Positions 6,056 through 44,517 of a stretch of 44,517 bases of DNA are shown here, in pieces. Positions within the stretch are counted from its first letter, which is position 1, and the number at the start of each line of letters is the position of its first letter. Source of the stretch: Escherichia phage ST20; the sequence record MF153391.1. The stretch is one strand, 5' to 3'. The translations under genes and the position numbers were made by a program. The notes beneath the pieces are model-generated. The model did not search any database, was not told the origin of the DNA, and saw only the letters and a program-made list of their open reading frames with translations.

Positions 6056-6288
6056 TAACGGCAACCTCCCTCAGAGTCGTCGGCACGAGCATCATGATTC
6101 GATGCCGTTGTGTATATTTCCGCTTCGGCCTTAGTTACCGGGATTGTGTATCTTCCTGTCTTAATCCACCAGCCATCCTCACAGGAATCCAGTACATCGA
6201 AAACATCACCTACATTTACGCCTATTTTCTCGAGAGCATCGTCATCTTCTTCATAGGTAACGGTGTTATCTGTAATTATGATTTGCAT
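6055..6288 (-). CDS. Small acidic protein, paralog B (MQIIITD...)
   Basis: ORF track 6055..6300; internal ATG at 6288; similar to the 5864-6055 protein. Confidence 0.45.
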   Translation of the reverse strand: MQIIITDNTVTYEEDDDALEKIGVNVGDVFDVLDSCEDGWWIKTGRYTIPVTKAEAEIYTTASNHDARADDSEGGCR

Positions 6289-6470
6289 CACTTTGCCCAT
6301 TTGAATTTAAAATTGTTGCCGATGAGTTCCATATCCTGTGCGTATAAAACGGTGATATACGATCCTGTTAAAGATGCAGCAAAATAATATCTATTTTCTT
6401 TGTGGGACGCGAATATAACCGAGAGTTCTTTGGTCTCTTTAATTTTAACCAACTGACCCTTCTTAAACAT
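6288..6470 (-). CDS. Hypothetical early protein
   Basis: ORF track 6288..6476; ATG at 6470 preceded by AGAGGAG. Confidence 0.45.
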   Translation of the reverse strand: MFKKGQLVKIKETKELSVIFASHKENRYYFAASLTGSYITVLYAQDMELIGNNFKFKWAK

Positions 6471-6503
6471 AACCACACTCCTCTGTCTCGTTTCGATAAG
6501 TGA

Positions 6504-6532
6504 ATAGTATCCTATTATGTTGGGGTGTGCAA
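6504..6532 (-). promoter_or_regulatory. Promoter TTGCAC-17-TACTAT with inverted repeat GAATAG-TATC-CTATTA
   Basis: Reverse complement reads TTGCAC ACCCCAACATAATAGGA TACTAT, near-identical to the promoters at 5170-5198 and 29313-29341. Confidence 0.5.
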
Positions 6533-6604
6533 GAGATTAGTTACGTTGCCGTTGTGATTCTTCAGGTAGGGTTGTGCCTTTATTCTTATTACTTGGTAAC
6601 TAAA

Positions 6605-6626
6605 GGGCAGGCTTTAAGGCCTGCCC
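6605..6626. other. GC-rich hairpin GGGCAGGC-TTTAAG-GCCTGCCC in the large intergenic region
   Basis: 8-bp perfect stem; only weak U-tracts on either strand. Confidence 0.3.
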
Positions 6627-6726
6627 AATAATCGTTACATTTTTACGGTTGCGAATCTACGGCACTTTAAGAAACTTAAGGAAAATTAGTTACTTATGTA
6701 ACTTAGGGGATTTTTACAATAGACTA

Positions 6727-6858
6727 GTGGCCTTCCGGACGCGTCAGCGAAACTACACTCAGGGCTAATGCCCCGCTCCGTTTCCTGCCGTGACACGGTC
6801 GCTTGTTCATACTTCACAAGCTCAGGTGGAGCTTAGCACATTTTTAGTGAAAAGTCAA
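6727..6858 (+). repeat. Structured non-coding element, copy 1 (about 130 bp); possible small RNA ending in a terminator-like hairpin
   Basis: Near-identical to 38987-39120; hairpins GGGC-TAAT-GCCC (6762-6773), CCGTG-A-CACGG (6788-6798), AAGCTC-AGGTG-GAGCTT (6818-6834), then TTTTT at 6841-6845. Confidence 0.6.
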
Positions 6859-6906
6859 TACCTGTAGCATCTTTTGTATCTTAGTAACTTTGTTGTTGCT
6901 TTTTGC

Positions 6907-6953: not shown

Positions 6954-7097
6954 ATGAAGATTTGCCAGATGTGTAGGAAAGAAAAAGAAGAAGGTGCATT
7001 CCTTAAACGATACGACAGAAAAGGCACACGTAGTTATTGCCGTGAATGTTTCAATGCGTACCGCAAACAATTAAGAGAGGCTAAGAAGAATGCATAA
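6954..7097 (+). CDS. Small zinc-ribbon protein (47 aa)
   Basis: Hand translation MKICQMCRKEKEEGAFLKRYDRKGTRSYCRECFNAYRKQLREAKKNA; GAGGAG 8 nt upstream; CxxC...CxxC. Confidence 0.4.
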   Translation: MKICQMCRKEKEEGAFLKRYDRKGTRSYCRECFNAYRKQLREAKKNA

Positions 7098-19646: not shown

Positions 19647-19650
19647 AGAA

Positions 19651-19677
19651 AAGGCCCCGTTTGGGGCCTTAGTTTTA
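19651..19677. terminator. Bidirectional terminator between convergent transcription units
   Basis: Stem AAGGCCCC/GGGGCCTT with loop GTTT, U-rich on both strands; same family as 31958 and 40973. Confidence 0.65.
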
Positions 19678-29204: not shown

Positions 29205-29312
29205 TCTTTAATCCTTTGGTTAAGAGGTTACTGGTTAACGGTAAATGCGCCAGACGGGAACCACCCGCTTTTCGTGTGCGACACTAGGCGCAAACTTATT
29301 CTAGCACACTAC

Positions 29313-29341
29313 TTGCACACCCCAATATAATAGGGTACTAT
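29313..29341 (+). promoter_or_regulatory. Rightward promoter TTGCAC-17-TACTAT with inverted repeat TAATAG-GGTA-CTATTC, driving the accessory cassette
   Basis: Direct reading; near-identical to the leftward promoters at 5170-5198 and 6504-6532. Confidence 0.55.
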
Positions 29342-29371
29342 TCACCTACACCAACAATGAAGGAGTTTAAA

Positions 29372-31785: not shown

Positions 31786-31954
31786 AGGCACAATGGGAAC
31801 AATATACGTTATCCGCGTATATGACGAAGAATGGGATGAATGGGTTGATATTTACGCCGTAGGTAGCAAGGAAGAGGCCTCTAAAGAAATGACAGAACGA
31901 AGTGACCGAGGCCAGTTAACTAACTTCTACGAAATGCCATTCAAAAGTGAGTAA
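31778..31954 (+). CDS. Hypothetical acidic protein, last gene of the cassette
   Basis: ORF track 31748..31954; ATG at 31778 or 31793. Confidence 0.35.
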   Translation: MREGTMGTIYVIRVYDEEWDEWVDIYAVGSKEEASKEMTERSDRGQLTNFYEMPFKSE

Positions 31955-31957
31955 GAA

Positions 31958-31984
31958 AAGGCCCCGAAAGGGGCCTTAGTTTTA
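31958..31984. terminator. Bidirectional terminator
   Basis: Stem AAGGCCCC/GGGGCCTT with loop GAAA, followed by AGTTTTA; near-identical to 19651-19677. Confidence 0.65.
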
Positions 31985-38370: not shown

Positions 38371-38634
38371 CTATTCCAGAATATTCCTCACGTAATCCTG
38401 CAACATGAACACTTTCAGGCGCAGTTGCCGTACGCATTCTGCGTTCTGAACGTCGATAGCTAAATCCTCGTCGGCGTCGCTACTTGGTGCCGCCAGTTTG
38501 CACGGCGGCTGCATCATCGTCGTATCCGGGGATGGAATTGGCGTTTGCGACGGCGCGGGACTTGAGCTGCATGCGCTCAGGGTCAAAAGCGCACACGCTG
38601 CGACCAGGCGTTTTAATGTACTTAACGACTTCAC
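38371..38634 (-). CDS. o-spanin (outer-membrane lipoprotein, Rz1-like), overlapping the i-spanin gene
   Basis: ORF track 87 aa; signal peptide with lipobox LTLSAC, then Pro-rich; starts inside the 38480-38866 gene in another frame. Confidence 0.6.
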   Translation of the reverse strand: MKSLSTLKRLVAACALLTLSACSSSPAPSQTPIPSPDTTMMQPPCKLAAPSSDADEDLAIDVQNAECVRQLRLKVFMLQDYVRNILE

Positions 38635-38866
38635 GGGTAATCACCTCTGATTTCGTCTTGCCTTCGTTGTCAGCGGCCGCGGCCTTTGATTCATCCTGCT
38701 GCTGCCGTTGTGTTTTCTTCGCTAACTCGGCCTGTGCCTTCTGCTGTTGCTGCGAAACGAGATTCGCCCGGCCTTCGTTCCAGCCGCTGCGATACTGGTA
38801 GATGCCGTGTGTGTAAGCCAGGATGATGAAACATGCTCCTGCTACGACAGTTGCTTTAAGATTCAT
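38480..38866 (-). CDS. i-spanin (Rz-like)
   Basis: ORF track 128 aa; N-terminal transmembrane segment then Gln/Ala/Lys-rich coiled coil; AAGGAGAAAC upstream. Confidence 0.6.
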   Translation of the reverse strand: MNLKATVVAGACFIILAYTHGIYQYRSGWNEGRANLVSQQQQKAQAELAKKTQRQQQDESKAAAADNEGKTKSEVITREVVKYIKTPGRSVCAFDPERMQLKSRAVANANSIPGYDDDAAAVQTGGTK

Positions 38867-38986
38867 GTTTCTCCTTTCTCGATAAGTAAAGCCCCGCCGT
38901 AAAGCGGGGCGCTAGTCCTTATCATTTAAACATAGAAACGGCGTAATCTCAGTAAACCCGTTACTTTTTACACAAGCAATATAGTA

Positions 38987-39120
38987 TGGCCCTTCCGAAC
39001 GCGTCAGCGTAACTACACTCAGGACTTACGTCCCGCTCCGTTACCTGCCCGCGCCGCGGTCGCTTGTTCATACTTCACAAGCTCAGGTGGAGCTTATCAT
39101 ATTTTTAGTGAAAAGTCAAC
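38987..39120 (+). repeat. Structured non-coding element, copy 2 (about 130 bp)
   Basis: Near-identical to 6727-6858; hairpins GGAC-TTAC-GTCC (39022-39033) and CCGCG-C-CGCGG (39049-39059) carry compensatory changes relative to copy 1. Confidence 0.6.
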
Positions 39121-39180
39121 TATTCGAATAGTTTATTCCAACATTTACAATTTAGAGGAATAACTGGAATAATCACAGAC

Positions 39181-39205
39181 ACTAAAAAGCCCCTTTCGGG
39201 GCTTT
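39181..39205 (-). terminator. Intrinsic terminator downstream of the Ig-like gene at 39209
   Basis: Stem AAAGCCCC/GGGGCTTT with loop TTTC, followed on the minus strand by UUUUUAGUG. Confidence 0.6.
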
Positions 39206-39208
39206 AGG

Positions 39209-39670
39209 TTATTCTGGCTTAGCGACCTTCGCCGCTTCGCTTACTGCCTCTACACCATCGGCATCGGTGACTTTAACGAAGTATTCGCCAGCCGCATTAA
39301 CAGTCAGAGACAAAGCCTCTTCCGGGGCGTTTACTACTTCCTTACCGTCTTTGTACCAGGTCAGCGCATATGGTGCTTTACCCGCCTTAACTTCGACCGT
39401 GATAGTTGCGCTGCCGTCTGCCAGTTCGGCGTCTTTCGGTTGCACTGAGAAATACACGTCGCCAGCATCAGCAAGATACGGAATTTCGTAAAGCATACCC
39501 GCTGCCGGCAGCGCAATACCGGTCTTGTCGGCAAACGGCATATCACCCACAGGTGCACCTAGTACACTTTCATCTTCAATAAACACCACGTTCTCGCCGG
39601 AGCCAGACACGCGGGCGTACTGGACTACGCGGCGTGAAGGCACATCGGTTACTTTGAAAAAGCCCATCAT
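39209..39670 (-). CDS. Ig-like domain protein
   Basis: ORF track 153 aa; PYALTWYKDGKEV...AGEYFVKVTDADG Ig-like signature. Confidence 0.5.
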   Translation of the reverse strand: MMGFFKVTDVPSRRVVQYARVSGSGENVVFIEDESVLGAPVGDMPFADKTGIALPAAGMLYEIPYLADAGDVYFSVQPKDAELADGSATITVEVKAGKAPYALTWYKDGKEVVNAPEEALSLTVNAAGEYFVKVTDADGVEAVSEAAKVAKPE

Positions 39671-40968: not shown

Positions 40969-40972
40969 AACT

Positions 40973-41000
40973 AAGGCCCCTTACGGGGCCTTTTTTTTTT
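40973..41000 (+). terminator. Strong intrinsic terminator
   Basis: Stem AAGGCCCC/GGGGCCTT with loop TTAC, followed by ten T. Confidence 0.65.
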
Positions 41001-44384: not shown

Positions 44385-44517
44385 CTACCTTTTATCCATG
44401 TACTCATCGACTATGTCAATTATGTACCTGTGCTCTACAAGCCACGCCAACATATTTTCTGGCCTGACATCGCCGTTTGGGGCACTGCCGTACAGAATGC
44501 AGTCATTATAGCAATCC
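44385..44517 (-). CDS. C-terminal part of the wrap-around small ORF whose ATG lies at 139
   Basis: Same frame as 1-139 across the 77-bp overlap; ends ...LVEHRYIIDIVDEYMDKR with stop at 44385-44387. Confidence 0.3.
   Translation of the reverse strand, partial: DCYNDCILYGSAPNGDVRPENMLAWLVEHRYIIDIVDEYMDKR
44441..44517. repeat. Terminal 77-bp exact direct repeat (copy 2)
   Basis: Identical to 1-77. Confidence 0.9.

Follow-up and report, generated by a model that had tools for sequence, protein, structure and literature searches.

The genome sequence of Escherichia phage ST20 (record MF153391.1; 44,517 nt, hereafter "the window", meaning the whole stretch of DNA that was analysed) contains two copies of an intergenic, non-coding element, each lying at the head of a leftward operon. 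The window is a complete Kagunavirus-type genome (subfamily Guernseyvirinae) of a lytic siphovirus infecting E. coli; it shares about 90% identity with phages of the K1G, K1H, and K1ind group and is collinear, in reversed orientation, with phage Snoke (L001). No tRNA or tmRNA was found in the window with ARAGORN. Copy 1 heads an operon of small genes, lysis genes, and terminase, and stands about 240 nt upstream of the run of small genes. Further along come an HslV-like protease, holins, and endolysin, followed across the genome ends by terminase, portal, and head-morphogenesis genes, an order taken from Snoke. Copy 2, 110 nt upstream of the i-spanin gene, heads the spanin-scaffold-capsid-tail-tube operon, in which i-spanin is followed by o-spanin, scaffold, major capsid protein, head-tail connectors, and tail tube.

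The two copies had been described in an earlier note, made from the letters alone, as intergenic direct repeats of 85-90% identity. This description holds: alignment with MAFFT gives about 88% identity overall between 6717-6858 and 38977-39119, with unrelated flanks and with the homology reaching some 10 nt further left than noted. In a repeat search, the pair appears as two adjoining blocks with a 1-nt indel between them (6717-6789/38977-39049, 84%; 6788-6858/39049-39119, 93%). Because these are the longest direct repeats of the window, barring an exact terminal duplication, a chance origin of the pair is excluded. The terminal duplication itself comprises 77 nt (1-77 and 44441-44517) and most likely arose as an overlap in the assembly of a genome that is circularly permuted and packaged by the headful mechanism; the unique length would then be 44,440 bp. 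No open reading frame (ORF) of at least 40 aa overlaps copy 2, and the sole ORF overlapping copy 1 is 43 aa long, with a GTG start and a frame that is broken by indels among relatives; a coding reading of the repeat is thereby ruled out.

A predicted promoter fused to a leader RNA

That each copy carries a predicted minus-strand promoter for the host sigma-70 polymerase, with an extended -10 and heading a non-coding leader, is well supported. All the marks of such a promoter are present, namely a TTGACA-like -35, a 17-nt spacer, TGn, and TAnnnT, conserved amid variation. Within 44.5 kb, the pattern TTGAC-N14-16-TGNTANNNT is matched only twice, once in each copy, against 0.36 expected. Across 47 distinct promoters from five leader classes, only T.GA.T, TG, and TA...T are invariant, the positions at which contact is made in extended -10 promoters of the sigma-70 type. 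In addition, the homology between copies 1 and 2 begins precisely at the -35. A second promoter within the leader (CTGACG-18-TATATT) was considered and ruled out, its -35 part not being conserved.

A palindrome, AAGCTC-N5-GAGCTT, overlaps the -10 and +1 positions. The earlier note had read it on the plus strand, as a hairpin AAGCTC-AGGTG-GAGCTT followed by TTTTT that would terminate a plus-strand small RNA. While the hairpin exists, it is not a terminator: its left arm overlaps the minus-strand -10, and the TTTTT, which starts 6-7 nt past the stem, is the complement of the AAAAA of the promoter spacer. A terminator scan passes only the hairpin of copy 2, with a weak 6-bp stem; that of copy 1 is not called.

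The element is, in all likelihood, a portable minus-strand cassette made of this promoter and a leader of about 105 nt, the latter comprising a hairpin P1 and an irregular hairpin of about 65 nt, P2-P4 (Table 1). The +1 is a prediction, placed seven bases past the -10 (G6823 in copy 1, G39084 in copy 2). The P1 stem is invariant in the Kagunavirus form of the element (class K) and replaced by another short hairpin in the form found in Jersey-type phages (class J). After P1 come GA and the long hairpin, which is built of P2a (CCG/CGG), a bulged C, P2b (GGYGCG/CGCRUU, with two G.U pairs), P3 (CAG+GUAAC paired to GUUAC+g+CUG), a purine-rich internal loop (GGAG/AGUGUA), and P4, a helix of 5-6 bp with a variable loop. 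The leader closes with a 3' tail consisting of an unpaired AAGGGCC, a spacer of fixed length and variable sequence, and YUAUUG. The conserved core is the base of the long hairpin (P2a, bulged C, P2b); the outer parts are free to vary with pairing kept, and the apical loops are not conserved (GUAA, AUUA, GUUA, CUCG, CACA). The two ST20 copies share P1, P2, and the tail, and differ in P3 and P4. A kissing pair between the P1 loop (AGUAUG) and a downstream CAUACU was also considered and ruled out, the loop being invariant while its 3' partner varies freely.

Table 1. Coordinates of the predicted element and of associated features in the window
Feature	Position	Strand	Description
Copy 1, predicted promoter	6830..6858	-	-35 TTGACT 6858-6853; 17-nt spacer ending TGC, TG 6838-6837; -10 TAAGCT 6835-6830
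Copy 2, predicted promoter	39091..39119	-	-35 TTGACT 39119-39114; spacer ending TGA, TG 39099-39098; -10 TAAGCT 39096-39091
Copy 1, predicted leader RNA	6717..6823	-	covariance model 124.9 bits; ends at conserved CUAUUG, where the homology with copy 2 stops
Copy 2, predicted leader RNA	38977..39084	-	covariance model 141.8 bits; minimum free energy fold identical to centroid fold
Copy 1, P1 hairpin	6801..6821	-	GCUUGU, loop GAAGUAUGA, ACAAGC, at +3 to +23
Copy 2, P1 hairpin	39062..39082	-	from fold predictions
Copy 1, long irregular hairpin	6735..6798	-	P2a, bulge, P2b, P3, internal loop, P4; two mismatches in P2b
Copy 2, long hairpin	38995..39059	-	CCG/CGG, bulged C, GGCGCG/CGCGUU (two G.U), CAG+GUAAC/GUUAC+g+CUG, GGAG/AGUGUA loop, CGGGAC-GUAA-GUCCUG
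Copy 1, hairpin H2	6605..6626	-	GC-rich, terminator-like; GGGCAGGCC..GCCUGCCC then UUUAGUUACC
Copy 2, hairpin H2	38891..38910	-	GC-rich, terminator-like; GCCCCGCU-UUAC-GGCGGGGC then UUUACUUAUC; ~25 nt ahead of the start codon of the first gene
First gene of copy 1 leftward operon	6288..6476	-	62 aa, function not assigned
i-spanin, first gene of copy 2 operon	38480..38866	-	region 97% identical to Snoke 6380-6650, beside annotated i-spanin
Candidate operator DNA, copy 2 only	39120..39172		perfect palindrome CTATTCGAATAG abutting the -35; three TTATTCC/GGAATAA repeats

Conservation of the fold and choice of strand

Folded one by one, eight sequence types from IMG/VR and metagenomes all adopt the architecture described above, which RNAalifold also gives. 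In a MAFFT alignment, 93.3% of the cells are paired, a share that falls to 30-41% once the partners are shifted by 1-3 columns; covariation is 0.176, compared with 0.074 in shuffles, none of which (0 of 500) attains the observed value. A covariance model (CM), R1, was built from this alignment. A joint CM alignment to which class J was added, and which is biased towards its own structure, has 94.6% of cells paired against 28-44% when slid, 16 of 29 pairs changed on both sides, and a covariation of 0.298 against 0.110 in shuffles (again 0 of 500). These alignments cover a subset of the approximately 450 GenBank copies. Apart from the bias just mentioned, two further points call for caution: the independent covariation events are few, coming from class J and some eight sequence types, and neither copy has a strong thermodynamic z-score (-1.25 and -1.77).

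The selection on structure proposed in the earlier note is thus borne out by many compensatory changes in relatives. The two ST20 copies alone differ by three compensatory pairs (G-C/A-U in P4, A-U/U-A in P3, U-A/C-G in a local hairpin). That in P4, noted early on as GGGC/GCCC versus GGAC/GTCC, is a true compensatory pair, and that in P3 (GAAAC/GUUUC versus GUAAC/GUUAC) had been missed. The third, noted as CCGTG/CACGG versus CCGCG/CGCGG, fits the local hairpin, but its segment competes with the long-range helix P2b, which is better supported. The local hairpin, CCGY-nnn-RCGG, fits all sequences (99.2% paired) with low information, since a 2-column slide pairs too, while in P2b 17 of 40 sequences have switched from C-G to U-A, and this helix has the better covariation support. 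In copy 1, the local hairpin (CCGU-GUC-ACGG) is intact and P2b has two mismatches; the two structures may form in turn as transcription proceeds.

In the conserved helices, 118 G.U cells become A.C mismatches on the plus strand, where pairing drops to 85.1% from the 94.6% of the minus strand. The alifold energy, -56 kcal/mol on the minus strand, is -44.5 kcal/mol on the plus strand. Only the minus strand suits both the compensatory changes and the G.U pairs. A plus-strand small RNA with its own terminator, as first suggested, is contradicted by the promoter signature, the G.U pairs, and the alifold energies, all of which favour the minus strand; the evidence instead favours an alternative that the same note had listed, namely leader elements of leftward transcripts. 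From its sequence, the element reads as the 5' leader of two major leftward transcription units, with its own promoter fused to it, and not as a self-terminated small RNA.

The earlier note had also proposed an Rfam scan, together with folding and a search for covariation in related phages. While the latter two gave a shared fold, compensatory changes, and relatives that carry the element, the former matched no family: with Rfam 15, there were no matches at the gathering threshold over the whole window, and only chance-level ones at E<=10 around both copies. Literature searches on Guernseyvirinae, Jerseyvirinae, and antiterminator RNAs yielded no account of the element. It is apparently an undescribed conserved structured RNA that belongs to none of the known families. 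Membership of the put family in particular was rejected, as R1 had no match at E<=1 in the put region of phage HK022 (L045) and no likeness was seen by eye.

Distribution among phages

Class K was found by blastn in 180 GenBank phage records (Escherichia, Salmonella, Raoultella, and Shigella), many of them with two places, and class J in 268 records with one place each, which makes about 450 records for both classes together. R1 detects class J in typical Jersey-type Salmonella phages (E ~1e-7), upstream of the spanin/scaffold/capsid genes. This class keeps P2 and the CGG-AAGGGCC...UAUUG tail, and differs in P1 (ACGCU-UUC-AGCGU), P3 (UCGCG/CGCGA), and P4 (GGGCGU-CACA-ACGCCC, with a U-A to C-G change within the class); its promoter-to-core distance departs from that of class K by 12 nt. 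The Jerseyvirus SETP13 has a single class K copy, in the capsid-operon position, and phage Jersey has a different leader at the other (non-capsid) position. At two loci (L043 and L081), capsid-position flanks surround a core of the other copy's type, and the cassette therefore moves between both sites; the capsid-operon site is its ancestral position. Class C leaders (L116, L119-L121, L124, L126) share CGGAAGGGYC, and R1 scores none of them.

More distant relatives, whose scaffold protein is 55-70% identical (L128, L129, L134; L132, L133), have the same type of promoter, e.g., TTGACTTTTACGAAATAAAATGATAAGCT. Other GC-rich leaders follow these promoters, with compensatory changes between relatives, and their direction is away from the scaffold gene. 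In the leaders of these distant relatives and of class C, the complement of the -10 region recurs 65-85 nt downstream.

Outside phage genomes, no copy was found among 5,426 complete E. coli genomes, and a genome set of 100,044 species gave only two real matches. These are a contig of a "Bacillota bacterium" metagenome-assembled genome (L152, JAEWLW010000073; 105 bits with R1) and a 738-nt scaffold of a Taishania pollutisoli assembly (L153; 38 bits); in both cases a phage contig has probably ended up in an unrelated bacterial genome through binning or assembly. Of the 48 stretches retrieved from IMG/VR with the core motif, all except three are on contigs of ~40-45 kb, the size of this phage type, and a metagenome scan added few further variants. 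Of note, "hypothetical protein" genes are annotated over the element in several GenBank records, such as Jersey gp08 (L135 7265-7456); these annotations are probably spurious.

Possible roles of the leader

Our leading guess, which we hold tentatively, is that of a cis-acting leader that would, like the put RNAs, make RNA polymerase resistant to terminators. The nascent leader would act in cis on the very RNA polymerase that transcribed it and keep the elongation complex resistant to pauses and terminators; the polymerase would then pass the terminator-like hairpin H2 and the terminators within operons of ~7 kb or more. Here we infer the transcription start, the contact with polymerase, and the read-through alike. 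Such a role is favoured because the leader is promoter-proximal, has two stem-loops, exists as divergent paired copies, has terminators downstream, and displays a motif at a fixed distance, and because no gene for a Q, N, sigma, or RNA polymerase homologue was recognised with PHROGs among the 30 small or unknown proteins scanned. As a context for read-through, a terminator-like hairpin lies past each leader (H2; Table 1), further ones are found after the capsid gene (36519-36498) and at the operon end (31977-31958), and in Snoke terminators are annotated within both operons. It is possible, if doubtful, that the leader represents a second class of factor-independent antiterminator RNA, unrelated to put by sequence, which would ride on the RNA polymerase of E. 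coli or Salmonella and serve these strictly lytic phages as a movable "terminator-proof" promoter cassette across the Guernseyvirinae.

Several observations nonetheless speak against a terminator-resistant polymerase. H2 is doubtful as a terminator, with an interrupted U tract and an AU-rich outer helix; its class J counterpart has no U tract, and the Snoke annotation has no terminator at H2. The terminator after the capsid gene is conserved, which suggests that termination there still matters, and the lysis/terminase operon of Jersey-type phages lacks the element. Moreover, put contacts the polymerase via both of its stems, whereas in ST20 only the base of the hairpin is conserved. As to H2 itself, its outer helix covaries between classes (GAUAAG/CUUAUC versus UAUACG/CGUAUA). 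A likeness of H2 to the stem of the type I-E CRISPR repeat was judged coincidental, H2 being different in class J and at copy 1-type loci.

The AU-rich outer helix of H2 and its imperfect U tract would suit a role in RNA processing or stability, a serious rival that we nonetheless regard as unlikely. Here, P1 would shield the transcript from 5'-end-dependent decay, and the ~23-bp hairpin, with or without H2, would serve as an RNase III-type site that sets the 5' end and the half-life of the operon messages, as in T7 early RNA or the lambda N leader. In line with this, P1 begins at +3 of the predicted transcript, the long hairpin amounts to about two helical turns with internal loops, its outer parts conserve nothing but their pairing, H2 is compound, and the cassette stands before unrelated genes. 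However, the strict conservation across genera of the bulged C, the tandem G.U pairs, and the AAGGGCC tail would be left unexplained, and P1 is wholly different between classes K and J.

The conserved core has non-Watson-Crick features of the sort seen at protein sites, and the leader might be a docking site for a trans-acting protein of phage or host that controls elongation, attenuation, or translation of both operons, as N does at nut, or as a coat or scaffold protein does when it regulates its own synthesis. The sharing of P1, P2, and the tail by copies of one genome that differ in P3 and P4 would agree with such a site, as would the hairpin between leader and first gene and the many phage proteins without assigned function. 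Yet no candidate protein and no boxA- or boxB-like motif was found, the apical loops vary, and the operons carrying the element seem differently timed; this too is a serious rival, though quite an unlikely one.

A free minus-strand small RNA of ~215-240 nt that starts at the promoter, ends at H2, and acts in trans on messages of the host or the phage would account for the succession of a promoter, a structured 5' part, an AU-rich stretch, and a GC hairpin with a U-rich tail. It is improbable all the same: no other promoter is evident between H2 and the downstream ribosome-binding site (a gap of ~25 nt in copy 2), copies 1 and 2 do not have the AU-rich part in common, and the window contains no above-chance complementary target for the AAGGGCC tail.

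The tail could also be viewed as a ribosome-loading signal, with AAGG(G) taking the part of a weak Shine-Dalgarno sequence and UUG opening a start-stop or mini-ORF that would couple ribosomes to the untranslated leader. A UUG indeed lies exactly 11 nt past AGG in 48 of 52 distinct contexts, with a spacer of variable sequence, opening ORFs of 1-18 codons. This spacing is, however, long for a Shine-Dalgarno sequence, UUG is replaced by UUA or CUG in the four remaining variants, the peptide varies, and the feature is absent from class C, and we consider ribosome loading very improbable. The chances of an element acting at the DNA level, be it an operator, a single-strand initiation signal, or an origin hairpin, are just as slim. 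Palindromes over the -10/+1 region and the fact that structured single-stranded DNA would covary too could be invoked for it, but the repeat unit starts precisely at the -35, the promoter-core distance shifts between classes K and J, G.U pairs are abundant, and there is no replication or packaging gene nearby. Finally, the plus-strand small RNA ending in the AAGCTC/GAGCTT hairpin and its T run is hardly credible, for although the copy 2 hairpin passes a loose terminator scan and a possible promoter at 6497-6533 (+) could transcribe across copy 1, the A.C mismatches and the overlap with the -10 speak against it, class J does not keep the hairpin, and copy 2 has neither a plus-strand promoter upstream nor a plus-strand gene downstream.

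Neighbouring motifs and genes

The repeats that accompany CTATTCGAATAG beside copy 2 (Table 1) also occur upstream of the class J and class C versions of the element, and are probably operators of a regulator of the capsid operon. Around copy 1, GTAACTT/AAGTTAC repeats, including a palindrome AGTTAC-TTAT-GTAACT, are found at 6660-6715 and 6875-6890, with equivalents in Jersey-type phages (L002 35990-36230; L135 38890-39080); these motifs of the divergent control region are probably operators of Cro-like or helix-turn-helix regulators. Since copies 1 and 2 do not have the same operator-like motifs, control over timing seems to lie outside the cassette that they share; this suggests that the leader acts in cis and independently of timing.

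A 37-nt motif, GTGAATAGTAyCCTATTATrTTGGGGTGTGCAAG, is present in two copies inverted relative to each other (6497-6533, plus strand; 29312-29348, minus strand). Its core AATAGTnnnCTATTAT has 12 near-matches against 2.7 expected, including sites at ~10453, 13155, and 16624 (plus strand). The motif matches the "phage promoter" consensus tgAATAGTa-ccTATTat-T obtained with PHIRE for the Kagunavirus fBC-Eco01 (PMC9825357). One of its copies faces the tail genes and the other faces copy 1 from downstream; the latter, at 6497-6533, could send antisense transcripts over copy 1.

Next to copy 2, a promoter-like site at 39144-39173 (plus strand; TTTACA-18-TGn-AATAAT) aims at a terminator with no gene between. 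At the equivalent place, other phages have an accessory gene on the opposite strand (sliding-clamp-like in Snoke, endonuclease VII in SETP13), and the site looks like the relic of such a lost gene. Beside copy 1, the first gene of the rightward early operon (6954-7097, plus strand) encodes a basic protein of 47 aa with two CxxC pairs, whose only matches are to the zinc-ribbon part of HNH/endonuclease VII and Lar-like families and which is possibly a small nucleic-acid-binding regulator. Four near-identical hairpins, AAGGCCCC-nnnn-GGGGCCTT, with U/A-rich flanks, lie at 19647-19677, 31954-31984, 39182-39212, and 40969-40999; located at borders of opposed gene blocks, they form a putative family of bidirectional terminators.

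Significance and comparison with known systems

Regardless of function, the element defines a covariation-supported RNA family present in ~450 sequenced phages of E. coli and Salmonella, where it is unannotated or misannotated as a hypothetical protein, and many of the phages that carry it have been proposed for therapy or biocontrol. It also pinpoints the starts of two major transcription units and thereby provides a handle on the timing of gene expression. Promoter-proximal leader RNAs that reprogram RNA polymerase have very few natural examples, essentially put and EAR; if the leader does act like put, it would offer both a compact new tool and fresh insight into the control of elongation by RNA.

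Among the systems to which the element can be compared, the RNase III signals of T7 early RNA and of the lambda N leader likewise are long irregular hairpins with internal loops in a 5' leader. They lack, however, a sequence-specific basal helix conserved across genera, which the ST20-type leader has.

The lambdoid late start (pR', qut, 6S RNA, tR') resembles the ST20 arrangement in its constitutive-looking sigma-70 promoter, its non-coding leader of ~200 nt, and its hairpin, and in both cases lysis, packaging, and structural genes lie downstream. In contrast, Q systems use a DNA site and a sigma-dependent pause, whereas the ST20 element is a covarying RNA fold with H2 as a weak terminator candidate; compared with the -10-like pause element of lambdoid phages, GAGCTT at +1 to +6 is only NANNNT-like.

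With lambda nut, the element shares the presence of two copies of an RNA signal near the starts of two divergently arranged operons. Unlike nut and N, ST20 has no boxA, no conserved small hairpin loop, and no N-like protein recognised among the 30 proteins scanned: by reading, CGCUCUUA-like boxA motifs are absent from leaders and spacers, where the loops vary, and a search by eye for ops or boxA motifs gave partial matches only.

The closest parallel is with putL and putR of HK022, from which the ST20 leader differs in its length (~105 nt against ~70 nt) and in its proportions, its first stem being short and its second very long. The hosts of the two RNAs also differ, HK022 being a lambdoid phage and the ST20-type phage a strictly lytic siphovirus, and for the ST20 leader any effect on the polymerase is a proposed one. 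The put RNAs suppress termination without a factor, an effect that mutations in the zinc-binding domain of beta-prime block. In both cases, however, a non-coding RNA is encoded just downstream of a phage sigma-70 promoter; the predicted ST20 promoter ends 7 nt upstream of the leader in both copies, and put is likewise promoter-proximal. Both consist of two stem-loops, are present as two copies per genome that differ with pairing preserved, and precede operons that contain terminators, with no dedicated antiterminator protein recognised. Both, finally, have a feature at a fixed distance past the second stem, which in put is a pause 21 nt downstream and in ST20 a conserved motif.

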